Shown here: piece by piece, positions 27,791 to 64,000 of the stretch | Numbering within the stretch: the first letter of the stretch is position 1 | How the letters are laid out: each line of letters begins with the position of its first letter | Assembly (NCBI RefSeq): GCF_036971445.1 | Contig: NC_091478.1 | Location: 63,240,001-63,304,000, forward strand | Source: Narcine bancroftii | Lineage: Eukaryota | DNA length: 64,000 bases | Direction: 5' to 3' | Position numbers and translations under genes: made by a program | Notes under the pieces: generated by a model | Seen by the model: the letters and a program-made list of their open reading frames with translations, nothing else | The model's database searches: none | What the model was told of the DNA's origin: nothing

Positions 27791-28150
27791 GTTTCATGCA
27801 GAATATATGTTTGTGCGTCTGCCTTTCTGTTTCTGTGCCCCTTTTTATGTCATCCAATTGTTATTCAGATGGGGAAAACATAATCACTTGAAAGAAATCA
27901 CCATTTTAATTTTCTGTTTGTAATTCACCTTCACGATTTTTAAAATCTTTTTATTTTCAAAAGAGCTCAATTCACCTTTAAACCAATGACCGGCCACTAA
28001 TTCATTTGTAGCTCCAACTAACAGTGGAGAATCACGAACCCACTTTTAACATAATGGGAACACACTATGATTAAGGATTGCGTCCCTCTCAAACAATCAT
28101 TTTGCAGACTACGCTCAAAAAAAAATTAAGCGTATTGCTTAAGTTACGGA

Positions 28151-28883
28151 CAGGAAGTGCAATTTAAGCAACTTACTTGCAAGTAAATATTTCGAAAGTT
28201 GTTCACCTATGTCTGTGTTTCGATTCCGATGCGTACATATTCTAAAGAAAAAAACAAAATGTAGAAATCATCTAAATGTCAGACAAAATACAGTTTTAAA
28301 TGTGTAAACCTTTCTCTGGCAACGTCGGGCGGTGAAGAGTCATGCAAACAAACAATTCCCGGATTTAGAACGTCGAGAAAAGTAGGAATGCTGTTGTCAG
28401 GAATCTTGAGGAGTGAACTATGAGCATAAAACATCTGGGATGGCCGACGTTTTACTGATCAAAGAAAGGAATAATTGTGAAAATGAGGTCTGCGATGAAC
28501 TCAAGAGAAGACGGTCTACAGATCACTGGTCCGAGATTCCTTAAGGTGAGATGGATGTAAAAATGCATATTCGAACCGTACTTTTATGCATAGAAAGGCA
28601 TGTAAGTTTGTCAATTATTTTTAAGCTATATCTTCCGTGCATTATTGAAGCGAGTTATAGGCTAGCTCCGTCCTGTCATAACCAAAGGTTTGTATTAATC
28701 ACCTCGATCGTAGTTGAAGGCGGCGTACCGGTAGGAAAATCGCTCTGAGTTTGGATAACCCAACTTCACAGACAGGAAAATAGGAAACTAATCTTCCGAA
28801 TGAGCCGACTCGACTTGATTGAAATCTGTATTCGCTTGCACCATATTTGGCATTCCTCCGTAATGGTCGTTCCGTGTGTGGTT
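28151..28883 (+). promoter_or_regulatory. Candidate proximal promoter / 5'UTR region (Ets CAGGAAGTG 28151-28159, GTAAGT donor at about 28602, RUNX TGTGGTT 28877-28883)
   Basis: Motif matches within 1 kb upstream of the leader exon. Short motifs only, no transcript data. Confidence 0.3.
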
Positions 28884-29087
28884 ATCCGGAAACGTTTCAA
28901 GCCGATTAGTGTTGGTTTGATTGAAACACACAAACATAAATGTCATCTTGAACTTGGTAGGTGGACAAAGAGAACCAGAAATGCATCGCGGTGCAATAAT
29001 CATGTGATAGACCACATCAGGGTCATACTGCCTCAAATTTCCGATGAAATCTGATTTTTTTCAACCCAAGTTACTCTCGTTTGCGAT

Positions 29088-29142
29088 ATGTTGTTCAAAG
29101 CAGTAATTCGGTACATGTCTCTTTTGGTTGTGATTTGGCAAG
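29088..29142 (+). CDS. Exon: signal peptide MLFKAVIRYMSLLVVIWQ
   Basis: ATG at 29088, hydrophobic core, donor CAAG|GTACGA at 29142/29143 (phase 1). An upstream acceptor ttttttcaacccaag| at 29070 suggests 5'UTR exons further upstream. Confidence 0.8.
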
Positions 29143-44100: not shown

Positions 44101-47100
44101 CCAGCTTGGTCGTTTCCCTGGATTGAGCAGGGCTGATGACACTTCCAAGCCTTGACTCCCCAGCGCTGGTGGTAGAATCAAAGGCCTGAAGTGTATGCTG
44201 TGGCCTTGGTTATGCTCTTGGGAGCCCCTTCAGGGGCCGGGTGCTCTGCTGCAGTGCTAGAGGTGGGATTGGCATGGTCATGTCCATGCCTCGTGACCTG
44301 CTGGACCATTGAGCCCTCTGGGGATCATGCAAGCTATAGCTCTTGGACCTTCTGGGTGACTTTCCTTGGGTTGGTGAAGCTCTCCTGGACCCGCAGAGGC
44401 TGGATTTCCCCAAGCATATGGTCGAGAAAGATGCACTCAAAGAGTGGGCAGTTGGTGTGCTCACCCATGAGTGCGAGCATCTCATCCATCAGCTCCATCG
44501 GGGACCTGTCCTTCAGGGTGTCGAGGTGCAGCATCCTAGCGGCACACTGGTGTCTGGATAGTCTGAGGGACCCGGTAACCACTTGCTTGATGGTCTCGTA
44601 TTTGTCCTCGGCGGGTGAGTGCTGAACAAGTTGCAGCATGTGTCTGGCAGTGGCCTGGTCCAGGGCAGTGACCACATGGTAGAATTTGGTCATGTCGGAT
44701 GAAATCTTGCAGAGGTGAAACTGGATCTCCACATGGCCAAACCAGGTCTTTGGCTCCTGAACCCAGAATTCAGGCAGTTTTACAGCTATAGTGTTGATCC
44801 CAGGCTCACTCATGATGGGTTCAAAGATATTTGAACCATTCGGGATCACCAATTGTAGTGACAGCTACACTGCTCCTACAATAACACATACAACCAGACG
44901 GATTGAGCTCAGTGAGCAGACTCTGGTTTATTGCAGGCTGCTGGGCTGCACTTATACTCCCCGCCTGGTTCTGGCTGAGAATCGTGCTGGAGGGCACTGA
45001 CATCACCCGGGCGTCACGTGGTCCCCCAGCGTGGGTTTCTGAGCCCCATGCTGGAAGGAAGGGAAACCCCTGACAGTGCCATTTTGGCCGGCTGCCCCAC
45101 AATGTGGCTTACATGTGGGGCCGCTTCGCCTGCTTTGTGGTGAGCCACCACATATGTTTATATTATAATTACATATATATAAATAGAGAGCTATATTTAT
45201 GGCCAAATGTCACATTATGTATCCTAATGCTCGATATAAGTGCCTTGTCTGTCTTTGTATGTTCTATAGCTTTGTAGCCACAAGTACTTGTTGAGACAGG
45301 TGCTGGGAGTCAATGCATGGAATGCATTTGGAAAATTTTTTGAAGTTGATGTCAAACTCCATGGAAAATCCCCAGCCCCTTGAAAGGAAAATGAAAACAT
45401 TATTTCATCTTAATGAATAATACATGAATGTTTCATCTGTAAATGTACTCTTTAATTTACAATTTCTATGTAGTTCTATTTCTTCCAATCTTCATACAGT
45501 AAAGATTGAAAGACACGTTAAAATGTTCTGCCTTGTTAACCTTAATCCATGTAAATGAGTATATGTATCACGGTTTCTTTTTTTTTCCACCAGATTCAAA
45601 AAGCACTTATGAAAGTCTTATTTTTCCATGTATAGTAGGAGGATCAGCAATTCTTGTTCTGATCATAATTTTGACCATAGTTGCATTAAAGAGAAAACCA
45701 GGTAAGAACCTTACAAAATTGAACAAATGTTCCCATTTCCTAATTCCATTGATGGAAGAAAGAAGCATACATTTGGCATTTAACACCATCATCCCCTCAA
45801 AATTGATCAGCAAACTCCAAGAACTGGGACTCAACACCAAATTGTGCAATTAAATCCAGACCACAATTAATGAGCTTGGTAAGAAAGTGTCCTCCACAAT
45901 CTCCATTACTACTGGAGCACTGGAGGGCTGTGTTCTTAGCCCCCTGCTCTACTCACTTTATGCCTATGATTGTGTGGCTCAGTATGACAATAACACCACC
46001 TGCAAGTTCACTGGTGATTCCACAGTAGTGGCCGTATAAAAAGGGGCTATGTGCCAGCAAATAGGAGAGAGATTGAAAACCTGGGTGAATGGGGCACCAA
46101 CAATCTCACACTCAATGTCACCAAAACCAAGGAGCTAACTGTTAACTTCAGGAAGGGAACACCAGAATGTACAATGCATTGATCATTGGGAGATCAGAGG
46201 TAGAGAGGGTGAGCAAATTTAAGTTCTTTGTAGTCACAATCGTGGAGGATCTTTTCTGTACCTAATACAAATGCCACCATGGAGGAAGTACATCAGTGCC
46301 TCTACTTCCTCAGAAGTTTGCAAAGGTTTGGCATGACATCACCAACACTGGAAAATTTCACAGATGCGTGGTGGAAAGTGTTCTGACTAGATGCATCACA
46401 GTCTGGTATGGGGGGTCACCAATACATCTGTGTGTGAAGCCCTGCAAAAGGTAGTGGACACAGCTCAGGACATCACTAGTAAAACCCTCCCCAACATTGG
46501 GAACATCTATAGGGAACACATCATGGGAGAGTAGCAGCAATTGTCAAGGATTCACACCACCTTGCACATGCTCTGTTCTCGATGACACCATCAGGAAAGA
46601 GGTATAGACACCACAGGACTTGCACCGCTTGCTTCAGGAACAGCTACTACCCGTCCACCACCAGACTCTTCAACAATAAACTCAATCAGGGACTCATTTA
46701 AGTACTCTTATTTTTGCACTTTATTGATTTTTTTCCCCCTGTATCTGTATGGCACAGTTTGTTGACATTTATTTATTTGTTTACATGTGTATATTGAGTC
46801 AGTTTTTTTCACACTGCCAATAAATGGTAATTCTGCCATTCCTGCAGTAGAAAGCATCTCAGGGTTGTATGTGATGTTATACATGTACTCTGGCAATAAC
46901 TCGGAAGTCATTAAGGAGAGAAACAAATATTTTCAAGCATTGACAGTGGAGAATACCAGTTACAAACTGGAATACAAATACCATTATTTCACCTTCCCAT
47001 TCGAATCATTCAATATTACCTTGAACTTGCTTTCCAAACACTCAAACAACGTTTACAGCGCTAGCAAGCCAGGTTCGAATCCGGGGTTGTCTGTAAGGAT

Positions 47101-49077
47101 TTCTTCCCGTGAATGCGTGGGTTTTCTTCCGGGGGCTCCGGTTTCCTCCCAGCCTTCAAAACGTACCGGGGCTCGTAGGTGAATTGGATGTGATTGGGCT
47201 GCATGGGCTCGTGGGCCGGAAGGTCCTGTTACCGTGCTGTACTGTATGTCTAAAATTACATATAGAAAATGTCAGATTTTTAGCCATAAATAATTTGGGA
47301 TTGATCTTGATTTTAGGTTAAAAAAAACAGTATTAGTTTTCTTGGTGATACAATTAGTCATTTTCAAGTGCAACACAGCTGTTGACGTGCATGTTCAACC
47401 ATGGACACAGGAAGCAGCACATTCTTTTGCCAAAAATAGTGTTCCAAAAATATCTTCGAGTAGCTGTTACCAGCGTTCCGGTGTTCGGACTTTGTAATTT
47501 AATTATAATGACAATTCAAGTGGATAACTTTCACCTTCCTAAAAAGCAATCCTGTCATTGAAAATGGGTTTGTTCCCCTCCTTAGGTCGTGATACCATCG
47601 CCGTGGAAGAAATCCGAACTGGAAATCCGGTAGGTTAATGTGATTTTCCACCCCCGAGGGCTGGACAAGTCGAGAAATGTTATGATCTGCAAAGAATATA
47701 TAAATTTAATTCCTTAAAAATTGCAGCGTAGAATGAAACGATGCTGCCTGTTGATTGCATCGCTAGAACAAGTGTCTCCGCTTATAAATCCGCTGCCTCA
47801 GAGTTCCGATGATGCGGCTTCAGTCCTGACTTATTCCTGGAGTTTACAGCTTCTTCCTTCATGGAAGTACCTGTGATTGGTGAGAGCTCTCTGTTAGGTC
47901 CCCAATATGTGGACATTGAAGATGGTAACCGTTACCCTAAAGTACAGGAAAGTAGGGAAATGGGGATAACCGTGGAGCAACGAAGGTGGCCGAAACCGAG
48001 AAACTAATACAACTGGTAAAGCACGTTTCCAAATTGTTCACTTAAAATCAATGTAGATTAAAAATATCCACAAACAAAAATGAACGCTGGAGCTGACATG
48101 CCTCACGTCTTCCCCGAATGTCGTTCTGGGCATATCCTTGAGTGCACCCAGCATTAAATTGTGCACTTTTTGGGGGGTTTATCCTCGCCTTGTTTAAGGC
48201 TTCAGGCTCAGTTTCCCTTCATGGAACTACACCAGACCCACTGCTAGCATTATAATGTTATCCTTCTAACAGGCTGGACAAGAGTCACCGGGACATGGCT
48301 CTGCACTAAATTTGAGCGAGGACAGGAGATTTCCCAAAGTTCGACACCAGGAAGAGCAGGTAAAGCCGGGGGCTTGGAGTAAAGAACATAGAAAATGATC
48401 GTTGCAATACCTGAAATTCATGTAGAGGTATTTGAAATAAGCGCTTGGAAATGTAAGCGTTCCACATATTTTGTGTCCTAAGCATTCCTTTAAGTACTTA
48501 GACGCCGGCACATGCTGTTCCGCGTGTTCAGCAGGTCCAATTCTAGCTTTCTTTGCCAACCGAGGGGTATTGATTCATCGCAAAGACATGCGGGTTGATG
48601 GCCACTGTACAGAGCCACAAGTATGTAGGTGACTGGTGGACTCTGAGGGGAAGACAGTGATGACGGCAATCTGGTGAAAATTAAATGGGATTATTTTAAA
48701 TGGGCGCATGCTGGTGGTCGCAGACTCGTTTCCACAATATATGGCATTCTTTACCTCTATATGACATTAGTTCCTGTACCAAGAAAATCTTTTAGGAACA
48801 GAGGAAAATAATTTAATGCTCATCTCTGTGTAAACTGGCTGCGAATTTAGCGTGATAAAACTGAGTTCATTGCAATTTTTATTTTAAAATCGATCGGCTG
48901 GACAATGGACTAACGGCCGATATTGAATTACTTTCACAGACTAAAACAGGAGGAGCGGAAAAACTGACTTACGCCTCTCTGCAGCTTCAAAAGTCCAATA
49001 AAACCACGGCATTTAACGAGAAAGACGCCCGTGCGGTGTATGCAGGTGTAAAGGTTTCAAGAGAAGCGAGAAGCTGA
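29088..49077 (+). CDS. Six-exon IgSF receptor gene (leader-VJ-C1-TM-cytoplasmic ITIM), 315 aa; SIRP-like / non-rearranging antigen-receptor-like. join(29088..29142,29308..29613,31604..31900,45594..45701,47586..47629,48940..49077)
   Basis: All introns are GT-AG with compatible phases (1,1,1,1,0). Exon lengths 55+306+297+108+44+138 = 948 nt, with no internal stop. The one-domain-per-exon, phase-1 layout is typical of IgSF genes. Confidence 0.88.
29308..29613 (+). CDS. Exon: germline-joined VJ-type Ig domain (AAKATSNKVEQ...VTMYC...SWWKEG...DIGMYYCQVKHRQQIIGNGSGSQLIVL)
   Basis: Acceptor tttttcccag|cag (NAGNAG). B-strand Cys, C-strand Trp, DxGxYxC and a J-like GxGSxLxV are all in one exon. Donor A|GTGAGT, phase 1. 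Confidence 0.95.
29782..29915 (+). mobile_element. tRNA-derived V-SINE/HE1-like SINE
   Basis: gcacggttagagtagcggttagc head and the V-domain-like core gtacgttctctccgtgtctgcgtgggtttccc. Further copies at about 30950-31170 (-) and 47045-47250 (+). Confidence 0.7.
31604..31900 (+). CDS. Exon: C1-set Ig domain (TPPTPLNIVP...LACKTAPFYPEELEIIW...GFYEASSVL...YTCLVSHEAL...FEQ)
   Basis: Acceptor ttctctctgtcgcag|. C1 signatures CxxxxFYPxxxxxxW and YxCxVxHxxL. Donor G|GTAAGG, phase 1. Confidence 0.95.
33575..36170 (-). mobile_element. Degenerate CR1 LINE in intron 3
   Basis: MEFNVDK.EVLHFG, ERVQRRFIRMLPG, LYSLERRRMRGDLIE. Flanked by Penelope remnants at about 33330-33550 and 36200-36580. Confidence 0.88.
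36636..36793 (+). pseudogene. Possible decayed alternative TM exon with TM Arg (activating-type); speculative
   Basis: Non-TE island between CR1/Penelope and RTE, with acceptor ...catccccag|. Allowing frameshifts, it reads GNVIRDSFLQQ/KWDYNWDSGLLSKLQMGRNLLLG/IFM/TLI/IILVVYSILKL*. Confidence 0.3.
37080..43200 (+). mobile_element. RTE LINE (37080-37782 and 42613-43200) split by an L1 insertion
   Basis: GVKHGCVLA, FADDC, and VVIPSL|..GCETW across the L1. 14-bp TSD cccttctctcttct at 37769-37782 and 42613-42626. Confidence 0.88.
37783..42612 (-). mobile_element. Young L1 with 5'UTR, ORF1 and ORF2; internal ORF2 deletion at about 39818
   Basis: ORF1 ENYNRRNNIKIVGLKE / IERAHR. ORF2 endonuclease starts at 40877, RT SLFADD. 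The N-terminal RT motifs (DAEKAFD, QGCP) are missing between ...YKVEK and RTENKIKG. Confidence 0.93.
43242..43299. repeat. (TG)n microsatellite at the LTR insertion site
   Basis: Direct read. Confidence 0.9.
43298..45152 (-). mobile_element. Internally deleted Gypsy element with both LTRs (43298-43578 and 44854-45152), PBS, gag and integrase tail
   Basis: Direct repeats of about 290 bp, TGT...ACA. PBS tggtgatcccg. Gag AVKLPEFWVQEPKTWF. PPT adjacent to the left LTR. RT absent. Confidence 0.9.
45594..45701 (+). CDS. Exon: stalk + transmembrane (DSKSTYESLIFPCIVGGSAILVLIIILTIVALKRKP)
   Basis: Acceptor ttttttccaccag|. Uncharged hydrophobic stretch of about 23 aa followed by a KRK stop-transfer. 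Donor G|GTAAGA, phase 1. Confidence 0.9.
45750..46880 (+). mobile_element. Rex-Babar/L2-like LINE in intron 4
   Basis: AFNTIIPSKLISKL, GCVLSPLLYSL, LNVTKTKEL. Confidence 0.85.
47586..47629 (+). CDS. Exon: short cytoplasmic exon (GRDTIAVEEIRTGNP)
   Basis: Acceptor ttcccctccttag|, donor CCG|GTAGGT. It converts phase 1 to phase 0, exactly as needed to join the TM exon to the ITIM exon. Confidence 0.78.
48940..49077 (+). CDS. Terminal exon with ITIM LTYASL and distal motif AVYAGV (TKTGGAEKLTYASLQLQKSNKTTAFNEKDARAVYAGVKVSREARS*)
   Basis: Acceptor ttactttcacag|, phase 0. Perfect (I/V/L/S)xYxx(L/V) ITIM. TGA at 49075-49077. Confidence 0.88.
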   Translation, partial: TKTGGAEKLTYASLQLQKSNKTTAFNEKDARAVYAGVKVSREARS

Positions 49078-49300
49078 GAATCAAATTAAGTTTCCATTCC
49101 TAGGCTACGAATGAATAGAGATCAAAGATGTTTATTTTTAATCGTTACAGTGCAGACTACGAAACGACAAGAGAAACAACACACACACAGGCGAAGAAAG
49201 CGAAGTGGTCATTTTTACCTCGGACTGTGATAAATTTCTCACTGACCGTATCAACACAGCCCTCGTTTTCCGATCTCTGCTAACATGAAACGGGCTGCGA

Positions 49301-49306
49301 AATAAA
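49301..49306 (+). terminator. Candidate polyadenylation signal AATAAA of the receptor gene
   Basis: First AATAAA after the stop, about 225 nt downstream. A second one lies at about 49542. Confidence 0.55.
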
Positions 49307-49806
49307 GTTCTGCACTTTCTCGTTACTGGGAGGGAGATATTATCAAAATGTCGTGAAAACTTTGTTCGTGAATGGTGGCTGATACATTAATGCTAATTAA
49401 TTCTTGGGTTTTTTTTCCAATGCAGATATTTGTGTTTAATTAAAGCAGCTGCCTGTTCACCTCATTCCATGGCTGGACGTCCCTCGTTTGTCACAAAAAC
49501 GAGTACGGGCAGGAACCAAGGGAAGAAAATCGTGGGCTCGCAATAAATACTTTAACAGCGTTTCGCAAATAATTGTCGGACTTCAGTGCCCTCGGGGCAG
49601 AGGGAACTGTCAGCGGGGACAGTCGGGACAGCGGGAGCTGTCGGGGTCGCGGGGGCTGTCAGCGGGGACCGGCGGGACACATTGGACACATCCAATTTCT
49701 TCCAAAAGAAGTTAACATTTTTCATTAACTGTGACATGAATGCCCAATTGCAAGACCCACTACCCACTACATACCCTCTACATACTGTCGAAATAATATA
49801 TCATTA

Positions 49807-50947
49807 CTTTCTTTTATTGATTTTAATAGAGAAAAAAACTTTATACATGATTTCTAACTGATGACATAATACAATGCAACTCATAGTAAATACACAACAT
49901 ATATCACTTGTAAAACAGAATATAAACCCTAATTAACAGGCAACATATCTTGCTCAAAACCTCGGATTCTGATGTTAAACGGAATATAATAAGAGAGAAT
50001 TAAGAATCCCATACATGTACTATAAACCTTCATCCTATTCTATGAGGGGATCATTATTAATTGTCTCCTCTTGCCCGGTTTTCTCTAGAAATAGAAAAAA
50101 AGAAAAACCCCTACTAATCTCCCACTAAATGGGTATAATCGAATCGTGACTCTCGGACACCGACAGGGAACCCTCAGGGCATTCACGCAACTAAATCTTA
50201 AAGTTGTGATAATAATCCGTGAATGGGTTGTCGAATTCAACCTTGACATCTTTTGTGCTGTATCTCATTTTGTCCAGCCGTAAGTAAGTCAATAACATGC
50301 AACCATTGCATATGAGTCAGTGTAGAATTATCTTTCCATTTCATCAGAATTGCTCGTCTGGCTATCAACGAGGTAAAGGGTAGGATAGGTTTACGACATA
50401 GGTTGAGAACATGGGCACAATTTAGGAAATGTTTTGGATATTATGTTTTTCTCTTGCCAGCTCTATTATACATAATGATCACTTTCAACCTTCCATGTGT
50501 GACACAGGTTTTAAGGAGTGGAACAAATTAGATATAAAAAGTTTCAAGGATCTTTTATTCAAGATAATGTTGCTTCTTTCAAACAATTGACAGAAATTTT
50601 TAAACTTCCTAATAAACACCTTTTTAGATACTTACAAATAGGATTTCTTTTTCAGTCCAAACTTCCTGATTTGCTTAGAATTTCCAAAATAAATGTTCTT
50701 GGTTTACTTTTTGATTTGAAGTTTACCAATAATTTGATGGACCTAAAAATAGCCTCAGTGACTAGGATCAAGAATGAATAGGAATGGGATTTGAATATAT
50801 CCCTTCCAGATGAGTACGAGGGCACCACTCTTCATTTGATTAATGAATCTTCATTTTGTGCACGTCATTCTCTGTAACCATTTAAGGAGCTTCAAGGAAT
50901 ACACATTTCTAAACTTAAATTAGCTCATTTTTATTCTGACATTGATC
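49807..50947. mobile_element. L1/Tx1-like remnants: 3' end on - (49807-50410) abutting an ORF2 piece on + (50410-50947)
   Basis: T-rich tail, LIARRAILMKWKD on -, and FKLPNKHLFRYLQI on +. Confidence 0.6.
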
Positions 50948-51311
50948 CAGTGGTTCTCAACCTTTTATTCCCACTAACATACGACTTTAAGTATTCCCTA
51001 TGCCATTGGTGCTCTGTGATTAGAAAGGCATTGCTTAATATGGTATGTGGGTGGGAAAGGAAAGTTGAGAATCACTGCTCTAGACCCAATTGTTACTGAA
51101 ATATTTTGATTGAGAAAAATTGTCATTGGCCCATTTCCTTTGAAGTTATGAAACCGTGGACAATAAGGTACAATTAAGACAGTGGTTTCCAAACTTTTTC
51201 TTTCCACCCACATGCCTCCTTAAGCAATTCCTTACTAATCACAGAGCACCGATGGCATAGGGAATACTTAAAGTGATATGTGAATAGAAATAAAAAGGTT
51301 GAGAACCACTG
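50948..51311. mobile_element. hAT/Charlie-type MITE, palindromic (two hairpin modules in inverted orientation)
   Basis: TIR CAGTGGTTCTCAACCTTTT ... AAAAGGTTGAGAACCACTG. Internal TIR-like ends at about 51077 and 51180. Confidence 0.8.
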
Positions 51312-53557
51312 TTTCTTGCAGATATCCTTGTGGACAATTGTTCTACACAACTGCAACACTAGCGTGTACTAAACAAATCTGTGAAACGCTTCTACCAGAA
51401 GACTCATATTTCAAGTGTTCTGCAGATTCCAGCATCTGAACTCTACAATGTTTAAAAAAAACTTTATGGTTCCAATCAGCTCAGCATTTCTCACTTGATT
51501 TCCAATTGTTTCATTTAACGGTTCAGAAATGCAATTCCACCCTTTCGCCTCTGGCATGAAACTGAAACGGGAGTTGGAACAAAACGGTGTCAGTGAATCC
51601 TGAAACTATGCAGCATTAGGTGCTTTCAAACTGCCTTGTAAAATGGGGTTAACCGGGAAATTTGCCTGGTTAGCGCCTCACTCACAAGGCAACTTGAAAG
51701 GGTTGGACCCGGTCAGCGGAGGTCGTCAGGGAACCCAGTTAAACTTACACAGAAAACGTCGACCAGCAGCTTGAACAGCAAAATGGCCGACCTAGTTACA
51801 CGCTGGCATCACGGGGGTGGGGGGGGGGGGAGCAGGCCAAGATCAGTGGGACAGGGGAGCAGGAAAGAGAGGAGCAGGGTTGGCTGCCACGGGGGAGAGA
51901 GAAGAGAGGGATCGGCCGCCGCAGGGGCAGAAGGGTCGGCTGCCGTGGGTTGGGGGGGGGGGGGGAGGGTGGGAGCGCGATTGATGGTGGGAGCTGGTGG
52001 TGGGTTGGGGAGACTAGTTTGGTGATGCGTCATTGTGGGGATGGGATCCCCCTTAAATCACCGGGTTGGCGATTTACTGGGTCCTTCCCCCTCATCTTAA
52101 AAGGTGCTGGAGGCACCTTTGCCCCACTAATCGCACCTGAGTCCTAGGAGGGCTACCCAGATGCTGCAACTTAAAAGCACCTGTTGAAACTGCAGCATCG
52201 AGCAGGTGCTGATGAGCTATTACCATGAGGTGGAACAGTGGACCAATATCTTCCAATCTACTGCTGAAGCAGCGCCATCAACTTGGGTTTTTTAAGATTT
52301 CTACTATTTGCAGCATAGAATTAATTTGACATTTTCCCTCATTGTCAAGTGGATCCCTGCTGTCCCTGTTCCTGAACAACCAGCGACTAATGCGGTGGTC
52401 TTTCACACGCACTTCGGATACCGGAGCCAAAAGGCTTTGCTGCATCCACTCTACTGAGTCATTTCTTTGGATAACATCAGTAGATGCATTCACACAAATC
52501 TAACTCTAAATCTCAGCCTCACTCCTCCTCCAATTACTTCCCCCTTCCACAGTTTCTTGCACATGGGGGACAATTTAAATAAGTAAATTACCCGATCAAC
52601 ACGTACATTTTCGGATGTGCGAGAAACCCAGAGGAATCATCTCTGGAGATGTTTGTGTCCCTCGTGGCCCTGACGCGCAAATGTAGGCACAGGAGACGGA
52701 AATAAAGATTAGTAAAGATGATTTTGTAAAGAGAAATATCAGAAAGACTGTGAAAAACTATAGCAGAATTTATCAAGAAAAAAATTGTGATTTGATACTA
52801 ACTGTTATAATTATAATGATAAAATATTTTTAAAAAAAAGAAGACGGCGATGGGGAGTGAAAGAAAAGCAGATAAAAGATTAATCAGCCAGATTTAGGTG
52901 AAATATTTCCACAGGGGTTGGCATTAAAAAAATGATTTAAAAATTAAAGACATTTTAACTAATGTGTCCAATGAAATATTAAGACATGTCGTATCCTTTA
53001 AATAATGCAGAGAGGGGTACAACATAAACCAAGCGACGCCACCGTGAAGCCTGTCATTTTGAAACCAAGTCATTCCCTTCCAAGCTCCTAGACACCCTCC
53101 TCACAATATGTCTTCCAACTGCGCTCTGTATCAGCAATACAATCGGTCCTTTCATCCGAGAAATAAATGCACATTACAATTGATAGAGCGAATGGTGCAT
53201 AATTTGCTCATTTTTATTAATAGAACATCATTTCTGCTACAACGAACCAAAACTATCAATTATTTCAAGTCCACCGTTTGCTGTTGCAGCTCAATAACAT
53301 CAAGGCATTGACAGATCTACACCGGATGTATTATCCAATCTATCCAATGTTTCACGGGTCACGGATTTGAGATTGAACATTCTACATAAAACGTTCCTGT
53401 ACCTGCTATTGGAATAATGCATCAATTTACTCTCATTTCCTCTCTTTCCAACGATATTTTGTTTTGTTCTGAAGCAAAAATTGGCTGCTCTTCGTTAAAG
53501 GTTCTGCTAAGGATAGAGGGGTACCTTGTACATTTGTGCAATATGTACAGTAAAATA

Positions 53558-55458
53558 GCTGGGACGTGGCAGCGAGGTCCTTGGGTCGTAGGTTTTATAT
53601 CGGAGTGGCCTTCTCCTATGCAGGTTTCTTACCCGGGCTGGAGGGGCCTGCCTCCCCTCCTAGGTCGGTCCATACTGCCCGGACCGGGGCCGAGGCCGCC
53701 GCAGCTCACCCTGTGCCTGGACTGGGGCCGCCGCCTCCCACTCTCTGCCCGGATCGGGGACTCCGCCGTCTACCCTTCGCCCGAACCGGGGCCGGGGCCG
53801 CTGCTGCTCTCCCTGTGCCCGGACTGGGGCCGCCGCCTCCCACTCCCTGTCCGGACCGGGGCCTCCGCCTGCCTCTCTCGACCGAGGCCGGGGCCGCCGT
53901 CTCCCCCTTGCTCCTGCCCGGATCGGGGCCACCGCCGTCTACCCTTCGCCCGGACCGGGGCCGGGGCCGCTGCTGCTCTCCCTGTGCCCGGACTGGGGCT
54001 GCTGCCTCCCACTCCCTGTCCGGACCGGGGCCTCCGCCTGCCTCACTCGACCGAGGCCGGGGCCGCCGTCTCCTCCTTGCTCCTGCCCTTATCGGGGCCG
54101 CCGCCGTCTACCCTTCGCCCGGACCGGGGCCGGGGCCGCTGCTGCTCTCCCTGTGCCCGGACTGGGGCCGCCGCCTCCAACTCTCTGCCCGTATCGGGGC
54201 CTCCGCCTGCCTCACTCGACCGAGGCTGGGGCCGCCGTCTCCCCCTTGCTCCTGCCCGTATCGGGGCCGCCGCCTTCTACCCTTCGCCCGGACCGGGGCC
54301 GGGGCCGCTGCTGCTCTCCCTGTGCCTGGACTGGGGCCGCCGCCTCCCACTCCCTGTCCGGACCGGGGCCTCCGCCTGCCTCACTCGACCGAGGCCGGGG
54401 CCGCCGTCTCCCCCTTGCTCCTGCCCTTATCGGGGCCGCCGCCGTAGCCACAGTAGGTAGCCACAGACGATGCCGCTTTAGTTGCCCATTCAGAGCCAGC
54501 TCTTCAGCGCTTGACATCCTGCTTTGCGGAAACTGCCAAAATGTTTGGCCTGGAAGTCAGCCTGAAGAAAACTGAGGTCCTCCATCAGCCAGCTCCCCAC
54601 CATGATTACCAGCCCCCCCACATCTCCATCGGGCACACAAAACTCAAAACGGTCAACCAGTTTACCTATCTCGGCTGCACCATTTCATCAGATGCAAGGA
54701 TTGACAATGAGATAGACAACAGACTCGCCAAGGCAAATAGCGCCTTTGGAAGACTACACAAAAGAGTCTGGAAAAACAACCAACTGAAAAACCTCACAAA
54801 GATAAGCGTATACAGAGCCGTTGTCATACCCACACTCCTGTTTGGCTTCGAATCATGGGTCCTCTACCGGCACCACCTACGGCTCCTAGAACGCTTCCAC
54901 CAGCGTTGTCTCCGCTCCATCCTCAACATCCATTGGAGCGCTTACATCCCTAACGTCGAAGTACTCGAGATGGCAGAGGTCGACAGCATCGAGTCCACGC
55001 TGCTGAAGATCCAGCTGCGCTGGATGGGTCACGTCTCCAGAATGGAGGACCATCGCCTTCCCAAGATCGTGTTATATGGCGAGCTCTCCACTGGCCACCG
55101 TGACAGAGGTGCACCAAAGAAAAGGTACAAGGACTGCCTAAAGAAATCTCTTGGTGCCTGCCACATTGACCACCGCCAGTGGGCTGCTAACGCCTCAAAC
55201 CATGCATCTTGGCGCCTCACAGTTTGGCGGGCAGCAACCTCCTTTGAAGAAGACCGCAGAGCCCACCTCACTGACAAAAGGCAAAGGAGGAAAAACCCAA
55301 CACCCAACCCCAACCAACCAATTTTCCCCTGCAACCGCTGCAATCGTGTCTGCCTGTCCCGCATCGGACTTGTCAGCCACAAACGAGCCTGCAGCTGACG
55401 TGGACTTTTTACCCCCTCCATAAATCTCCGTCCGTGAAGCCAAGCCAAAGAAAAAAAG
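53558..55458 (+). mobile_element. Young RTE insertion: 3' ORF (about 54464-55398) preceded by a GC-rich tandem array and a probable inverted 5'UTR; 11-bp TSD
   Basis: TSD acagtaaaata at 53547-53557 and 55459-55469. Uninterrupted ORF DDAALVAHS...FTYLG...CNRCNRVC..RIGLVSH. Tail gccaagccaaagaaaa. Confidence 0.9.
53673..54445. repeat. GC-rich tandem array, unit about 169 bp made of about 33-bp subunits, about 4.5 copies
   Basis: ccggggccggggccgctgctgctctccctgtgcc recurs at about 53786, 53955, 54125 and 54293. Confidence 0.9.
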
Positions 55459-55569
55459 ACAGTAAAATATCTATTATGAAGTCGAGGTAGAACAGACTTG
55501 TAGGCTGGACAATGTTGAGATGAACGGATTGTTCTTAAAAACTGATGAGGATTGTTCTTAACAACATTG

Positions 55570-56745
55570 ATTGATGTCCCCAGGGCTGGATGTGATGTAC
55601 CCCAGGTTGCTGTGCGAAGGGAGGAGAGAGATAACAGCAGTATTGGCAATGATCTTTAAGTCCTCCTTGGCTACAGGAGAGGTGCCAGAAGATTGGAGAA
55701 TTGGAAATGTGGGTCCCTTGTTAAAAAAGGGTAATAGGGAGAATCCTGGGAATATAGACCAGTGAGCCTTACATCAGGTGTGTGCAATCTATTGGAGAGG
55801 ATTCTTAAGGATAGGATTTATGAACATTTGGAGAAGTACAGTCTGCACTAGAATAGTCAGGATGGCTTTGTGAAGGGAAGGCGATTCCCAACGAGTCTAA
55901 ATGAGTCTTTTGAGAAGATAACATAAGTAATTGATGAAGGTAGGCATCTGACAAGGTGCCCTATGAGAGACTCATTCAGAAAGTCATGAGGCATGGGATC
56001 AATGGAACTCTGGGTGTCTGAATTTAAAATTGGCTTGCATGTAGAAAGCAGGGAGCAGTAGTGGGTGGAATGTATTCTACCTGGAGGTCAGTGACTAGTG
56101 GTGTTTCACAGAGATCTGTTCTGGGACCTCTGATCTTTGTAAATTTTATAAGTGATCTACCTGAAGAAGTGGAAGGATGAGTCAGTAAGTTTGCAGATGA
56201 TACGTAGGTTGGAGGGGTTTTGAAGAGTGCTGAAGGTTGTCAGAGGTTACAAAAGGATATAAACAGGATGCAGAATTAGACAGAAATGTGACAGATGGAG
56301 TTCCAGTTGGATAAGTGTGACGTGATGCATTTTGGAAGGTCAAAGCAGAAGAGTAAAAGATTAATGGTTGGTACTTAACAGTGTGGATGAACAGAGAGAC
56401 CTTGGTCAAAGTCATTACATCTCTCCAGGTTATTATGCAAGCTGATAGCATAGTTAATAAGGCTGATGGGATGCTGGGCTTCATTAATAATAGAATTGAA
56501 TTCAAGAGTAGAGAAGTCTTCTTGCAACTCTACAAATCTCTGGTAAGATCACACTAAGAGTATTGTATTCAGTTCTGGTGACATCATTATACGAAGGATG
56601 TGGAAGTAATGAAGATGGTGCAGAGGTGAAATACCAGGATGTTACCTGGATTGGATAATAAGACTTATGAGGCAAGGTTAGCCGAGCTAGGATTTTTCTC
56701 TTAGGGATGAATAAGGATGACAGGAGACATAATAGAGGTCTACAA
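55570..56745 (+). mobile_element. Degenerate CR1 RT
   Basis: TGEVPEDWRIGNV.PL.KKG and SKFADD. A short - strand L1 piece follows at about 56746-56930. Confidence 0.88.
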
Positions 56746-57776
56746 GTCAACGTTTTCATGGAGATTCCAGCCACTTTACCATTCCTTAAGAACTTTCTGA
56801 CACGTCCGTTGAGCATTTCATAGAAACACTGGGGCAGCAGAATGGGCAGGGACCGAAATCGATAATGTAGTCTTGGCATCGCCTTCATTTTAATGCAATT
56901 AACTCTGCCCACCAAAGTTATGGGCAGGGTTCAACATATTACAGTGTTAAGCGCAAGTTAGTAAATCTCCATTCATAAAAATAAAGCGAATTTGTCAGTT
57001 CCACAAGCTTGACACCAATGTGCAGTCAAAAATATTTAACCTTTAACTGTTCTGGTACAGTTCCCAAGCAGATGGCTTAGAAATATAAATTTCATTTTTT
57101 AATCAGATAGGGCAGGGAACCCAATTAGCACGCTCCTTCCTGGTGCCACAAGCTGCCTTCTGAAAAACACAAATACCAATTCGAATCCCCAGTGAGCAGA
57201 GCAAGACCAGCATTTAGATTATTGACAAACATGAAGGAAGCCTTGCATCAGAGAATATGTCTATCAGTCTGCAGGATCCATTAAAGAGTCTGTGTCTATC
57301 AGTATGCAGGATCCGCTGATCACAACCTATGTACAGCAGTCTGGAGCTGATGAAGATTGAAGATTGAAGGCTTACTGGCAATTTCAGCCTAGATACATAT
57401 CCCATGCTGGACAGGTCATCTATCAGGCTTAGTTAACTGAAAAATGATGTTAATATTCTAAATACTTAATATCGTAAATGCCAGATTTCAGATTTTATTG
57501 TCCGAGTATGTGATGTATGACATCACATCCTGAGATTCCTTTTTCTAGATGGTATTGCAGAATTACACTAATAGATAGTACAAAAATTAAACTGTACACA
57601 GCACAAGCATGTAAACATATAAAATAAATGTCAACAGATAACAAATGTAAACAAACTGACTGAAATACTGAGAGAACAAATAAATAAAGTGCACAAGTAA
57701 GAGTCCCTTAATAAGTCCCTGATTGAGTTTGTTGTTGAGGAGTCTGATGGTGCCATTGTGGCACCTACACCTCTCC

Positions 57777-59470
57777 ATTTTTTAAAGTTTTTATTTAATA
57801 AGTCACAATATAACCAATCTCTAAATATTTATAAAAACTTTGAATGTATATATACATAGTGACTTTCTCCATTTTATCCCCACCCCCTCCCTTCCACTCC
57901 ACCCCCATAACTAGAGAGTGAAGAAAAAACAGAACCAAAAGAGGATAGAATTTTTTTTAAAAAACAAGAAAAGTGAGTGGGTCTCCCCCAGAGAATTTAT
58001 GGCATATTTTCTAAACATTTAAACAAAGTTCTCATATAAACAAACTATTGATCACTTGGCTAACCTCCAAACATATTTACATATATATTGTCTTTAACAG
58101 TCTCTTAGTTCTGTCTATCACTCTCTTCCTTGTTGAATATTTGTAAGTTGTTCAACAAAGTCTCAAGCTTTTCTTGGGTTATCAAACAGTCTCTTTTGTC
58201 CACCCAGGATAAATATTTTTAAAACACTGCTGGGTGTCACAACACAAAATTATTACCTTTTCTCCATCATGTATCTTTTATTGGGTTAAATTCCTTGCAT
58301 TTCTTTAAAAGTTCAAAACTTATATTCGGGTAGAAAAATATCTTATTCCCATTATGTTCCAATGGACCATTAATTTCTTTTGTTCTTCTGACCGCCAGCC
58401 CTAATATTTTTCCCCTTGTCGGATACCTTAATAACTTGACCAGGATGGAACATGGTCTTGCTACACCTGCAGCTTCGGTGCCAAATCTCTGTGAGCTCTT
58501 TCAATTTCTATTTCTTCCTGAAGTTCTTCTATTTCCAAAACTTGTGCAGTCCATTGTTTTAGAAATCCTCTTATGTCTGTACCTTCCACACCTTCTTTCA
58601 GGCCCACTATTTTAATATTATTACACCTATTAAAATTTTCAAGAATTTCTATTTTTTGGGCCAATAAATCTTATGTCTTCTTCACCTCTTTTCTCCTGCT
58701 TTTTTCTTTTATGACAGTCATGTCCATTTCCACACCTTTCACTCTCTCTTCTACTTCTTCACATTGCTTTTTCATATCCCTTATTACCTTTTCCATACGT
58801 TGAATTTTTATAACTGCTTTTTGCACATTCTCTATTAACTCTGATTTCCGACATTAATGTTTCCATCATAGCTCCCATCTGATTATCAAAGTACTTTATA
58901 TCTACTGTTTGTTTTTGGATTTTACCTGTAATTTTATTCTGTATCTTCCTTGTCACTTCCACGTCTTCTAACTCTTGCTCCGTATCCTCACTTGATGTAG
59001 AGTCCATTTCCAAGGTTGTTTCTACTGCTTTACGTCATTGGGCTTGCAGGAGCTTGGTGCTGGTGACTGTTCTCTTCAGTGTCCTGACTGGAATGTGTTC
59101 TAAACATGTGTGAGGTGTCATGCATGTGCATTAGCGTTCCCCTTTCTTTTTCAGTCAGCTATCATTGGAACCCGCCCTGTGATCTCTCACCCTGATGTTG
59201 CTCACCTGTCAGCTTTGCAGTGCAGCTTATGTTACCCAGGAGAGCTCCTGGTTCTGCTGTTCAGGTAAGGCTTTCTTTTTTATTTTCTGGCAATTTCTTT
59301 GGTTCTTCTTTGCAACTCCTTCTTCAGAGCCATTTTCTTTCTTTTCTTTCAATGTTTATGTCCTGTTTCCTGTACTTTGTTTGTTACAACTTTGGTTTTT
59401 TCCACTTTTTAATTTTTTCTCTGTGGAGCGCTGGTTTCACCTGACCAGTCGCTACTCCATCACGTGACCA
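57777..59470 (-). mobile_element. ORF2-less L1 derivative (5'UTR + ORF1 + 3' end) inserted in a Rex-Babar-like LINE (57480-57775, 59474-59800)
   Basis: ORF1 homologous to 17.1-18.4 kb. 3' tail homologous to 10714-10790. TSD cacctac/tacctct at 57762-57774 and 59474-59486. Confidence 0.8.
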
Positions 59471-59796
59471 CCCCACCTATACCTCTTTCCTGATGGGACT
59501 AGTGAGAGCAGAGTTTGTGATGGGTGGTGAGGGTCTTTGATGATTACTGCTGCTCTCTGATGACAGCATTCCCTGTAGATGTACTCAATAGTGGGGAGGA
59601 TTTTGTCTGTAATGTCCTGGGCTGTATCCACTATTGGATGGCTTTATTTTCAAGGTTGTTGGTGTTCCCATACCAGACTGTGAAGCAGAAGGTCAGCACA
59701 CTTTCCACCACTCCTCTGTGGAAACATTCCAGGGTTTATGGTCTCAAACCAAACCTTTGTAATATCTGAGGAAATAGAGGTTCTGATATGTTTTCT

Positions 59797-61877
59797 TCTT
59801 TCTTTTTTTTATAATTTTTTTTATTTTTCACACCATAAATCACATTAACCATGGTACACACTTTTTCCTTTTCACACATAAACAGTGCCATTTACTTCCC
59901 CCCCCCTCCCTCCTCCCATCCCACCCTCCCTACCTCCCCCCTCCCGTCCAGTTAAGGTATACAATCTAGGATACATTAAACCAGTCAGACAATGTTGTCA
60001 TTCAATAAAAATACACCAGAAATTCTACTGAGTCCATTCTTTTCATTTCCTTTTCCTTCCGTTAACTTAGGTAATGATTGCCCCCGGTAGGTTTTCACTA
60101 TTGTATTTAATGTAAGGCTCCCATATTTGTTTGAATATTTCAATATTATTTCTTAAACTATATGTTATTTTTTCTAATGGAATACATTTATTCATTTCTA
60201 TATACCATTGTTGTATTTTCAAATTATCTTCCAATTTCCAGGTTGACATAATACATTTTTTTGCTACGGCTAGAGCTATCTTAACAAATCTTTTTTGTGC
60301 ATCCTCCAAATCAATTCCAAATTGTTTATTTTTTATGATACTTAGGAGGAAGATCTCTGGATTCTTTGGTATATTGTTTTCTGTTATTTTATTTAATATC
60401 TGATTTAGATCTTCCCAAAATTATTTTACTTTCTCACATGTCCAGATTGCATGAATTGTTGTTCCCACTTCTTTTTTACATCGAAAACATCTATCAGATA
60501 CTGTTGGGTCCCATTTATTTAACTTTTGAGGTGTAATGTATAGCCTGTGTATCCAGTTATATTGTATCATACGTAACCTCGTATTCATTGAATTTCTCAT
60601 CATTCCGGAGCATAACTTCTCCCATGTTTCCTTCTTTATCTTTATATTTAAATCTTGTTCCCATTTTTGTTTAGTTTTACCATTTGTTTCCTCAATCTCC
60701 TTTTCTTGCAGTTTAATATACATATTTGTTATAAATCTTTTGATTAACATTGTATCTGTAATCACATATTCAAGGTTACTTCCCTCTGGCAAACTCAAAC
60801 TGCTTCCTAATTTATCCTTCAAGTAGGATCTCAATTGGTAATATGCCAGTGCTGTATCTCGAGTTATATTATACTTATTTTTCATTTGTTCAAAGGATAA
60901 GAATCTATTTCCTGAAAAACAATTTTCTATTCTTTTAATCCCTTTTTTTTCCCCATTCTCTAAAGGAAAGGTTATCTATTGTAAAAAGGAGTAACTTGTT
61001 TTGTGTCAATATTAGTTTTGGTAATTGATAATTTGTTTTATTTCTTTCTACATGAATCTTCTTCCAAATATTGAGGAGATGATGTAATACTGGAGAACTT
61101 TTATGTTGTACCAATTTTTCATCCCATTTATATAATATGTGTTCAGGTATCTTTTCCCCTATTTTATCTAATTCTAATCTCGTCCAATCTGGCTTTTCCC
61201 TTGTTTGGTAAAAATCTGATAGGTATCTTAATTGTGCGGCTCTATAATAATTTTTAAAGTTTGGCAGTTGTAAGCCTCCTTGTTTATACCATTCTGTTAA
61301 TTTATCTAGTGCTATCCTCGGTTTCCCCCCCTCCATAAAAATTTCCTTATTATTTTCTTTAACTCCTTGAAGAATTTCTCTGTCAGTTGTATTGGCAATG
61401 CCTGAAATAAGTTTAATATCCTTGGAAAAATGTTCATTTTAATACACTTTATCCTTCCTATTAGTGTTAGTGGTAAATCTTTCCAATGCTCTAAATCGTC
61501 CTGCAAGTTTTTCATTAGTGGATAATAATTGAGTTTATATAGTTGGCCGAGATTTTTGTTTATTTGTACACCTAGGTATCTTATTGCTTGCATTTGCCAT
61601 CTAAATGGTGATTCCTTCTTAAATTTTGAGAAATCCGCATTATTCATAGGCATTGCTTCACTTTTATTTACGTTTATCTTGTAACCCGACTCTTCTCCAT
61701 ATTCCTTCAATTTCTTATATAATTCTTTTATTGATAGTTCTGCTTCTTTTAAGTACACTATAACATCATCCGCAAATAAACTGATTTTATATTCCTTGTC
61801 TTTTATTTTTATTCCTTTTATATTATTATCTGTTCTTATCAATTCTGCTAGTGGTTCTATAGCTAACGCAAACAATA
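59797..61877 (-). mobile_element. L1 3' half (RT C-terminal part to polyA)
   Basis: LFALAIEPLA, SLFADD and the CCHC region. Same family as the 37.8-42.6 kb L1 but a distinct copy. Confidence 0.92.
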
Positions 61878-64000
61878 TTATAGAGCCGAACAATTAAGAT
61901 ACCTATCAGATTTTTATCAAACAAGGGAAAAGCCAGATTGGACTAGATTAGAACTAGATAAAATAGGGGAGAAGATACCCGAACATATATTATATAAATG
62001 GGATGAAAAATTGGTACAATGTAGGAATTCTCCAGTATTACATCATCTGCTCAATATTTGGAAGAAGATTTATGTAGAAAGGAATAAAACAAATTACCAA
62101 CTATCAAAACTAGTACTGATGCAAAATCAGCTAATCCCTTTTACAATAGATAAACTTTCCTTTAGAGAATGGGAGAAAAAAGGGATCAAAAGAATAGAAA
62201 ATAGTTTTTCGGGAAATAAATTATTATCCTTTGAATAAATGAAGGATAAATATAATATAACTCACGATACAGTGTTGGCATACTACCAACTGAAATCCTA
62301 CTTGAAGGACAAATTGGGAAGCAGTCTGAGGTTACCAGAGGGAAGTAATTTTGAATATGTGATTACAGACACAATGATAATCAAAACATTTGTAACAAAC
62401 ATGTATATTAAACTACAAGAAAAGGAGAATGAGGAAACAAATGGTAAAACTAAACAAAAATGGGAACAAGATCTAAACATAAAGATAAAGAAGGAAATAT
62501 GGGAGAAGTTATGCTCAGGAACTATGAGAAATACAATAAATACCAGGTTATGTATGATATAATATAACTGGATACACAGGCTATACATCACACCTCAAAA
62601 GTTAAATAAATGGGACCCTACAGTATCAGACAAATGTTTTCGCTGTAAAAAGGAAACGGGAACAATAATTCATACAATATGGACATATGAGAAAGTGAAA
62701 AAATTTTGGGAAGATCTAAACCAGATATTAAATAAAATCACAAAAAGCAATATACCAAAAAACCCAGAGATCTTCCTCCTAAGTAACATAAAAAAACAAA
62801 GAATTTGGACTTGATTTGGATGGTGCACAAAATAGATTTGTTATGATAGCCCTAGCTGTAGCAAAAAAATGTATTATGTCAGCCTGGAAACTAGAAGATA
62901 ACTTGAGAATACAACAATGGTACATAGAAATGAATAAATGTATTCCATTAGAAAAAATAACATATAATTTAAGAAATAATATTACAATATTTGAACAAAT
63001 ATGGGAGCCATACATGAAACATAATAGAGAAAACCTACCGGGGACATCTACCACCTAAAATGACAGAAGGAAAAGAGAATGAAAAGAACTGACTCAATGG
63101 AATTTCTTGTTTATTTAAATTGAGTGACAACATTGTTTGACGGGTTTAATGTCTCTTAGATTCTGAACTTTAAATGAATGGGAGGGGAGGTAGGGAGGGT
63201 GGGAGGGGAAGAGGGAGGTGGGGGGGGGAGAAAATGACACTGTATATATTTGAAAAGGAAAATGTATGTATCTTGATCAATGTGGTTTATAGTGTGAAAA
63301 ATAAAAAAATTTAGAAAAAAGAAGAGAGAAGGGATGACCACTGCTATGTAAACTTTCATCTTGTGGAGATGTGGACATTGTGTTGATTGAGCACTCCAGT
63401 ACACAGCCACCCCAGAGCCTGGCTAGCCTTTCGAATCCTGGAGACAATTTCTTTGTCCAAAGACCCATCATTCGAGTTGAACCCAAGTATTTGAAGCTTT
63501 TTACATTGGTCAGCTGAGTGTCATCTGCAGTCATTTTTGGTTCTATGATGTTGGGGTTTGGCACGGACTGAAGGAGTACTTCAGACTTGTTCAAGTTGAT
63601 GGTCAGGCGAAAGAGCATAGCAGCATCTGAGAATTTGTTCAGTATTAACTGCAGATCTCTGTCTTTGTATGCAGAGTGTACAGTCATCAGCAAAATGTGT
63701 TTCTTGAATGATAATATAGATGTGCTTTGTCCATGCGGTCAAGTGGCGAAGGTCAAAGAGAGAGCTGTCCAGTTGGTACCTGATGTACACTCCCTCCTCC
63801 AGACCTTGGACACCACATGACAACAAGTAAGTGAAGAACAGATTGAATAAGACTGTGGCTAGTACACAGCCATGCTTCACCCCATTAGAAATGGTAAATA
63901 GAGCTGATGTATCACCAAGGCAGACGACCTGTCCTATCATTCCATTGGGAGCAGATGAATTATCTTTATGAATTTCCTTGGGCATCCATAATGTCTCAGA
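61876..64000 (-). repeat. Inverted near-identical duplicate of 37102-39229 (RTE with nested L1 3' end); segmental duplication of receptor intron 3
   Basis: Reverse complement matches continuously, including the same RTE/L1 junction and private L1 changes (TIIHTIWTYEK, shared frameshift). It runs off the window end. Confidence 0.92.

Follow-up and report, generated by a model that had tools for sequence, protein, structure and literature searches.

Inverted duplications with a disomic spacer, in which an inverted copy abuts a stretch of non-duplicated DNA, have been described from human chromosomes as fold-back products (Hermetz et al. 2014, PMC3907307). The cases reported there are large de novo rearrangements beside terminal deletions, translocations or rings. 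Their spacers measure 766–70,466 bp, with 20 of 21 below 15 kb, and 2-bp microhomology was present at 7 of 13 junctions; in simulation, 134 of 1000 random junctions reached at least 2 bp. Repeat-mediated junctions in that study join homologous positions of opposite-orientation repeats. L1 3′ transduction, a common L1 product to which one study ascribes 24% of somatic events, leaves a 5′-truncated L1 3′ end followed by the downstream flank of its source (PMC5490808). False heterotype duplications of genome assemblies, on the other side, present as a near-identical second copy nearby on the same sequence (Ko et al. 2022, PMC9516828).

The locus discussed here lies in an IgSF receptor gene of Narcine bancroftii, within a window of 64,000 bases, which is the whole stretch of DNA analysed. 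Non-rearranging, joined-VJ IgSF receptors include SIRP, NITR, NKp30, PRARP and UrIg (PMC11599192, PMC10751288). [quoted passage not shown] The gene encodes a V(J)-C1-TM-ITIM receptor (RefSeq XP_069757172-78) on the plus strand, comprising a leader exon (29088..29142) that matches the RefSeq isoforms, the V exon with its germline-joined, J-like motif (29308..29613; Pfam V-set, E=8e-9; 100% to XP_069757173 and XP_069757175), a C1 exon (31604..31900; Pfam C1-set, E=8e-10), a TM exon with a hydrophobic core lacking charged residues (45594..45701), two cytoplasmic exons (47586..47629 and 48273..48359), and a last coding exon (48940..49077) with a consensus ITIM, LTYASL, and a non-consensus tyrosine motif, AVYAGV. 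One V and one C1 domain are present in all five annotated isoforms (X1–X5). An older V copy at 3.7–3.9 kb is frameshifted.

By its features, the gene stands nearest to the SIRP-alpha clusters, and a PDB search retrieved SIRP-alpha chain 2wng_A at E=2e-11, with antibody chains scoring equally well or better. SIRP-alpha is composed of a V and two C1 domains. Unlike SIRP alpha, beta and gamma, the Narcine gene has a single C1 domain; it likewise differs from UrIg2, for which many C domains are described (PMC12227049). All 29 matches in the search for close relatives are from cartilaginous fish, and the family is clustered in other elasmobranchs. A literature search, conducted mostly outside subscription journals, found no paper on this receptor gene or on the duplication. 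For 28001–37000, 11 sequencing runs were listed, four of DNA type sharing 0.80–0.81 of its words and none of RNA type; these shares do not enter into the argument.

The third intron of this gene is the source of the duplication. It harbours an L1 element, L1a (37771..42612, minus strand), which was inserted into an older LINE that we take, from its motifs, to be of the RTE type, and which is bounded at both ends by a 14-bp target-site duplication. The 5′ half of the RTE occupies 37066..37770 on the plus strand (its left edge is approximate, the RT-like reading starting at ~37066), and the 3′ half lies at ~42613–43215. According to the translations, both ORF1 and ORF2 of L1a are broken, and the N-terminal RT region is deleted near 39822.

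The original prediction held that 61876–64000 is the reverse complement of 39229–37102, including the same L1-in-RTE junction and shared private mutations, and both statements hold. Self-BLAST aligns 37102–39235 with 64000–61870, with 98.4% identity across 2135 columns (E=0), and in a global alignment of 39229–37102 against 61876–64000, 32 of 2129 columns differ (27 substitutions and 5 gap columns). The substitution difference thereby amounts to 1.3% (27 in about 2120 bases). The source segment is, hence, set at 37102..39229, and its inverted counterpart at 61876..64000 runs off the window end. The latter consists of the copied 3′ part of L1a, designated L1a′ (61876..63331, plus strand; ORF2 C-terminal half, 3′ UTR and A tail), and, flanking the L1 3′ end, of a copied fragment of the presumed RTE (63332..64000, minus strand), an RT remnant with a weak RVT_1 match (Pfam, E=0.003). 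Copy and source are separated by a spacer of 22,646 bp (39230..61875), which holds the TM and cytoplasmic exons.

That the two segments descend from one locus is evident from what they have in common. The L1 3′ end, the A tail, the target-site sequence and the RTE flank recur in copy and source; both have the +1 frameshift at 38315/62790, and in both, a Cys of the ORF2 C-terminal Cys motif is changed to Tyr, while the neighbouring L1 element, L1b, is intact at both positions. In a three-way comparison, the copy sides with the source against L1b at 168 columns and with L1b against the source at 6; another 18 columns have a state found in the copy alone, and at 3 all sequences differ. The assignment of L1a′ to L1a rests on these columns together with the frameshift at 62790. 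An independent insertion of a sister L1 is ruled out by the common RTE flank and the common disabling changes, and gene conversion between the L1 arms was rejected, as the L1b-like columns are isolated and form no tract. The 32 differences fall into the 1459-bp L1 part (27) and the 669-bp RTE part (5), a difference in decay that is not significant (p=0.21); likewise, the private substitutions (14 vs 6, p=0.12) give no significant sign of uneven decay. By the time of copying, the frameshift had already arisen in the source L1.

At 61876, the copy meets L1b (59795..61875, minus strand; RVT_1, E=1e-10 by Pfam) head-to-head, as had been noted, and with 89.5% identity to L1a this neighbour is indeed a different L1. 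L1b is cut inside its RT domain. On its other side, it interrupts an older LINE, presumably Rex1-like, of which the 3′ half is present at 59477..59787 (minus strand; 73.6% to 46292–46607); a search for the other half within the window turned up only the copy at 45.8–46.3 kb itself. L1b has no target-site duplication at 61876 and its flank there is lost, which marks this position as a rearrangement breakpoint. The noted 2-nt TA overlap at 61876..61877, a probable microhomology, stands in part: TA certainly belongs to the copy, whereas its membership in L1b is deduced from the expected Leu codon, as this L1 position is nowhere intact in the window.

Several ways of arriving at this junction were considered and rejected. 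Twin-priming inversion of a single L1 does not agree with L1b having its own 3′ end and overlapping L1a′ at 87.9% identity only. Homologous recombination between L1a and L1b is opposed by their same orientation and their being out of register. An inversion from staggered breaks with a small flanking duplication predicts that the 5′ portion lost from L1b, together with the remainder of its host LINE, should turn up left of the source; neither was found in the window.

What best accounts for the junction is an inverted duplication of local origin, with 22.6 kb of spacer between the copies. We put at roughly 0.6 the probability that the 2.1-kb copy of intron-3 transposon DNA arose by a local template switch at the DNA level and that it has given rise to no working second receptor. 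A duplication of the locus is indicated by the common L1-RTE junction with its flank and by the columns that side with L1a; a rearrangement, by the target-site duplication of L1a, its absence from L1b and the absence of half of the host LINE; and a local origin, by the probability of only 4.6e-4 that a random site on the 108.75-Mb sequence lies within 25 kb of the source. No working second receptor is expected because the searches of annotated Narcine proteins recovered only X1–X5 and because the minus strand of the window has neither a TM nor a tail exon of the family. Mechanistically, a DNA end that was broken or had stalled at 61875, within L1b, would have resumed at 39229 in L1a on the opposite strand, aided by no more than 2 nt of homology, and the intron would then have been copied leftwards, a course known from fold-back inverted duplications with a spacer. 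The further junction needed to restore the chromosome would have to lie past the window.

The likeness to the human fold-back cases concerns the inverted copy abutting a non-duplicated spacer, the spacer length, which falls within the published range, and a probable microhomology of ~2 bp, in the Narcine case as seen in assembled sequence only (PMC3907307). Against the 2–8 bp of inverted microhomology that characterise fold-back junctions, TA lends weak support, both because its L1b side is deduced and because random junctions reach this length at the frequency given above. Furthermore, the breakpoint joins two L1s of the same (minus) orientation at positions ~625 bp apart in L1 coordinates, and is, thus, unlike the hybrid-repeat junctions of fold-back duplications; the human cases differ also in being large and de novo.

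The claim of a DNA-level duplication is upheld in so far as the locus was copied rather than independently invaded by an L1; the common junction is, however, compatible with two other origins, which the original prediction had set aside. The first is L1 3′ transduction, by which a read-through RNA of L1a with its flank would have been reverse-transcribed, 5′-truncated at 39229 and inserted in opposite orientation into L1b. The visible anatomy, a 5′-truncated L1 followed by the 3′ flank of its source, is precisely of this kind; a new poly(A) tail and a target-site duplication would then close the copy a few kb on, after which L1b would resume, and the missing second protein would be accounted for. 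However, the source was not retrotransposition-competent at the time of copying, as the frameshift and the loss of the Cys are common to both, and it now lacks part of its RT. L1 proteins strongly favour their own mRNA; mobilisation in trans is conceivable. Moreover, landing merely 22.6 kb away would have the low probability given above even on the source's own chromosome alone, and the L1a–L1b split is some eightfold older than the copy (1.3% for the copy vs 10.5% for the split). We, therefore, regard transduction as quite improbable.

The second origin is an artefact of assembly. If 39230–61875 were inverted on one of the two haplotypes and the assembly had passed through both, then 61876–64000 would be the allelic flank read backwards, and the junction would be real DNA with no extra copy. 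A substitution difference of 1.3% is within the range that alleles could reach, and no second Narcine protein is annotated. In addition, false heterotype duplications are reported to be enriched in heterozygous regions, and 61–92% of those persisting in VGP assemblies lie on the same scaffold (PMC9516828). Unlike such duplications, the two copies here have no assembly gap between them (there is not one N in the 64,000 bases), and the junction is base-precise and inverted. Furthermore, a flank divergence of 1.3% would imply a divergent spacer that the assembler could phase, and a full false copy would be expected to include V and C1 and might have been annotated. In our view, a false duplication is unlikely, though a good deal less so than transduction.

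Whether the local inverted duplication carries a second receptor depends on DNA beyond the window. The original prediction of a minus-strand paralogue, with C1 at about 5 kb and V at about 7.5 kb past the edge, agrees with the recomputed coordinates if the copy is colinear: C1 would be at 69202–69498, V at 71489–71794 and the leader at 71960–72014. All copied DNA inside the window is L1 or RTE, the RTE 5′ edge maps ~35 bp past the window end, and only there would unique intron begin; a second copy of V and C1 is, therefore, an extrapolation, and none is present within the 64-kb window. It is doubtful, if by no means far-fetched, that the copy extends over the additional 5.2 kb to C1 and 8.0 kb to the leader; for the latter, an assumed log-uniform length prior, uncorrected for the long-copy bias at the window edge, gives 0.30–0.66. 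It was also correctly foreseen that the break would precede the TM and ITIM exons: it lies in intron 3, 6.4 kb ahead of the TM exon, so that any V and C1 copied would be without both. Three protein searches over annotated proteins of 30–2000 residues, the V-domain search scoring 64 candidates, recovered only isoforms X1–X5 of one gene from Narcine; such searches are blind to pseudogene, non-coding and unannotated copies. If V and C1 were copied, the half gene is most likely an unannotated or pseudogene copy.

In the functional alternative, promoter, leader, V and C1 would all have been duplicated, and their expressed product would be a decoy, either secreted or anchored by other means. Its transcript could either read through after C1, adding 19 residues before a stop, or splice to a hydrophobic cryptic exon at 62449. 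L1b, which runs in the sense direction of this transcript, would provide the poly(A) signals. The position of the breakpoint in a fitting intron speaks for this, as do a pyrimidine-rich acceptor and a 49-codon hydrophobic frame in antisense L1 (62298..62449, minus strand), a candidate substitute TM, with AATAAA downstream at 61813, 61807 and 61732. Clustering of the family in other elasmobranchs and the lack of the ITIM pattern in 12 of 27 non-Narcine relatives would fit as well. However, 10 of these 12 keep a TM segment, pointing to another origin than such a break; no such protein is among the Narcine matches; and the same acceptor at its counterpart in the parent intron (38656) is used by none of the five annotated isoforms. 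Three of six plus-strand matches of the acceptor and hydropathy scan lie in antisense L1a, such frames thus being common there. The parent already has an annotated isoform without the TM exon, X4, and the older V copy, as stated, is frameshifted. All told, a functional truncated paralogue appears decidedly unlikely. As a separate observation, the minus strand of 49100–61875 gave one TM scan match, at 57667 (shuffled mean 0.04), which is unlike the family TM exon.

Paired and decoy IgSF receptors are defined by an own TM with a charged residue, if activating, or by an expressed secreted form, if decoy. No family TM was seen on the minus strand, and the hydrophobic core of the cryptic frame contains no charged residue, so that the copy would not qualify at present. 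The view that paired or decoy clusters arise in this manner was a generalisation; in other rays, relatives that lack the tail have kept a TM segment. We consider it very improbable that a half copy of the VJ-C1 receptor ends in a cryptic exon of antisense L1 as its anchor, free of an ITIM and with its poly(A) signal from sense L1. Were this true, it would represent a decoy receptor at birth, built from two dead retrotransposons and sharing its ligand-binding domains with the inhibitory parent, a VJ-C1 receptor of the shark lineage.

As it stands, the event belongs to a known kind, the inverted duplication of local DNA within an intron rich in repeats. It gains importance only where the copy extends as far as V and C1 and is expressed, in which case a datable decoy would have arisen beside an inhibitory receptor. 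A mis-assembled inversion would point to a receptor null allele and a reference error; the inverted allele would have V and C1 separated from the TM exon. The host family itself, a clustered group of VJ-C1-TM-ITIM receptors in sharks and rays to which RefSeq gives inconsistent names, may merit more attention than the duplication.

Positions 61876-64000 of the assembled window hold an inverted copy of 39229-37102, which lie in intron 3 of the receptor gene. Self-comparison of the window gives 98.4% identity over 2135 columns (37102-39235 against 64000-61870), end-to-end alignment of 39229-37102 with 61876-64000 leaves 32 of 2129 columns different (27 substitutions and five gap columns), and the window contains no N. 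The copy comprises the 3' end (1456 bp) of an L1 element, L1a (37771-42612, minus strand), and 669 bp of the element hosting it, which we take to be of the RTE type, the visible duplicated DNA being transposon throughout. It is abutted by a second element, L1b (59795-61875, minus strand; 89.5% identity to L1a). In a three-way alignment, 168 columns group the copy with L1a and six group it with L1b; a further 18 are private to the copy, and three differ among all three sequences. Copy and L1a carry the same frameshift and have both lost a conserved Cys, at positions where L1b is intact. The original prediction had described this inverted copy, its L1-in-RTE junction and its shared private mutations, and did so correctly.

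The copy is most likely a local DNA-level duplication, and we give a probability of roughly 0.6 to an event of this kind that yields no working second receptor. L1 3' transduction would likewise yield a truncated L1 with flank of its source (PMC5490808), but L1a was already defective at copying and the chance of landing within 25 kb is 4.6e-4 for this chromosome alone; we regard this origin as very unlikely. Rather unlikely, too, is an inversion of 39230-61875 in one haplotype with both haplotypes joined in the assembly, which would give the identical sequence picture without an extra copy: false assembly duplications are associated with heterozygosity but are usually gap-separated (PMC9516828), whereas no gap lies between the copies here.

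Regarding the local duplication, the junction at 61876 is a breakpoint. Identical 14-bp target-site sequence flanks L1a at each end, and the 3' end of L1b sits inside an older, presumably Rex1-like LINE; at 61876, a target-site duplication and the remainder of this LINE are both absent, and a search of the window recovered neither that remainder nor the RT part that L1b lacks. L1a and L1b run in the same direction and meet with a register shift of about 625 bp, which rules out homologous recombination as the junction's origin. As to the 2-nt TA overlap proposed for the breakpoint, its L1a side is certain and its L1b side is deduced from an expected Leu codon. An inverted copy that follows a spacer of 22,646 bp and overlaps by about 2 nt at the junction has a geometry like that of human fold-back duplications, whose spacers span 766-70,466 bp and which show 2-bp microhomology at 7/13 junctions (PMC3907307). 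In that study, however, 20 of the 21 spacers are below 15 kb and 2-bp microhomology arose by chance in 134/1000 simulations, so a fold-back-type mechanism is an inference here.

A quasi-palindrome (59795-63331; 1.46-kb arms, 87.9% identity, spacer about 615 bp) arises from L1b together with the copied L1, and no conversion tract was seen between its arms. L1a has lost its N-terminal RT region through an internal deletion near 39822, at whose junction the two ends share about 8-9 nt. Other repeats include a GC-rich 169-bp tandem array (4.3 copies, 93% match) fused to an RTE-type 3' half with a 313-codon open frame (53675-55440), a 188-bp piece with 97.9% identity to that element (2679-2866), a 364-bp self-complementary, MITE-like element (50948-51311; 72% match to its own reverse complement) and, in intron 3, an LTR-retrotransposon remnant (43300-45155; terminal repeats 81% identical, gag-like frame on the minus strand).

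The host gene (exon starts: leader 29088; V 29308; C1 31604; TM 45594; tail 47586, 48273 and 48940) encodes V-set and C1-set domains (Pfam), a J-like GxG motif within the V exon and a tail with one consensus ITIM, LTYASL. At 29308-29613, its V exon agrees at 100% with RefSeq proteins of Narcine bancroftii, and a cluster look-up identifies XP_069757172-75 and 77-78 as isoforms X1-X5, all on one exon set in the window, X4 skipping the TM exon. Judged from the nearest clusters by features, the receptor probably works like a SIRP-type inhibitory receptor, although its single C1 domain departs from what we take to be the SIRP-alpha architecture. The gene can be placed in the joined-VJ class that PMC11599192 lists. 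Together with proteins P0005-P0034, it (29088-49077) represents a family of clustered VJ-C1-TM-ITIM receptors; all 29 full-length matches come from cartilaginous fish, several per species (nine clusters in Heterodontus, three in Hypanus and three in each of two Mobula species), under RefSeq names that vary among SIRP-like, NCR3LG1-like, tapasin-like and light-chain-like. A V-C1 tree was built from 25 rows after removal of four Narcine isoforms and of three rows whose alignments were short; it places the Narcine gene as sister to a Mobula/Hypanus clade (support 97/96). The literature searched, whose coverage excludes most subscription journals, yielded neither a description of this family nor a publication on this locus.

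The original prediction placed a minus-strand paralogue beyond the window. The left edge of the RTE-type element lies near 37066 and maps to about 64036 on the copy side, and the first unique intron base would fall some 35 bp past the window's end; colinear projection would place C1 at 69202-69498, V at 71489-71794 and the leader at 71960-72014. Under an assumed log-uniform length prior, copying as far as the leader would be anything from doubtful to fairly probable. Protein searches gave five matches among 64 candidates with the V exon (178-2000 residues), 29 among 2068 at full length (188-601 residues) and none among 111 proteins of 30-187 residues. No second Narcine family gene was found in the annotated proteome (30-2000 residues): the Narcine matches, in two clusters (1 and 4) of which every member was examined, are isoforms of one gene. 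An expressed coding paralogue is therefore less likely; these searches would miss a pseudogene or a copy that lacks annotation, and the evidence against the predicted paralogue is modest. Weighing the length prior against the missing protein, we hold copying of V and C1 to be possible at somewhat below even odds, and a working product to be improbable. An older V copy at 3680-3960 (plus strand; 66% identity over 231 bp to the receptor V exon), for which tblastn found no C1 or TM partner in the window, is a dead paralogue; being frameshifted, it illustrates the usual fate of such copies at this locus.

The intron is, as predicted, broken before the TM, cytoplasmic and ITIM exons: the break lies 6.4 kb upstream of the TM exon, and a tblastn search with 34 proteins detected neither a TM nor a tail exon on the window's minus strand. 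If V and C1 were copied, read-through past C1 would add 19 residues before a stop. In the parent, read-through of the C1 donor (31901-31960, plus strand) gives a Cys-ended tail reminiscent of the antibody secretory tailpiece, a likeness that may be chance. A scan for splice acceptors followed by hydrophobic frames, which recovered the true TM exon as a positive control, yielded a candidate cryptic acceptor at 62449, in antisense L1 within the copy, with AATAAA signals downstream in L1b. This acceptor is also present in the parent intron, where no annotated isoform uses it, and antisense L1a accounts for three of six plus-strand matches; frames of this kind are thus frequent in it. One further match in the spacer (57667, minus strand; shuffled mean 0.04) is unrelated to the family TM exon. 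For the parent, a TM-less isoform is already annotated.

Among the relatives, Scyliorhinus P0020 and P0022 carry an Arg at the start of the TM segment and are possible candidates for an activating type, and Mobula P0011 and P0012 are short-tailed sisters of a pair with longer tails. The ITIM pattern is present in 15 of the 27 non-Narcine relatives and absent from 12, their gene models being unverified. Since 10 of these 12 retain a TM segment in the same unverified models, tail-less partners do seem to arise in this receptor family, though by a route other than a break of the inverted-copy type.
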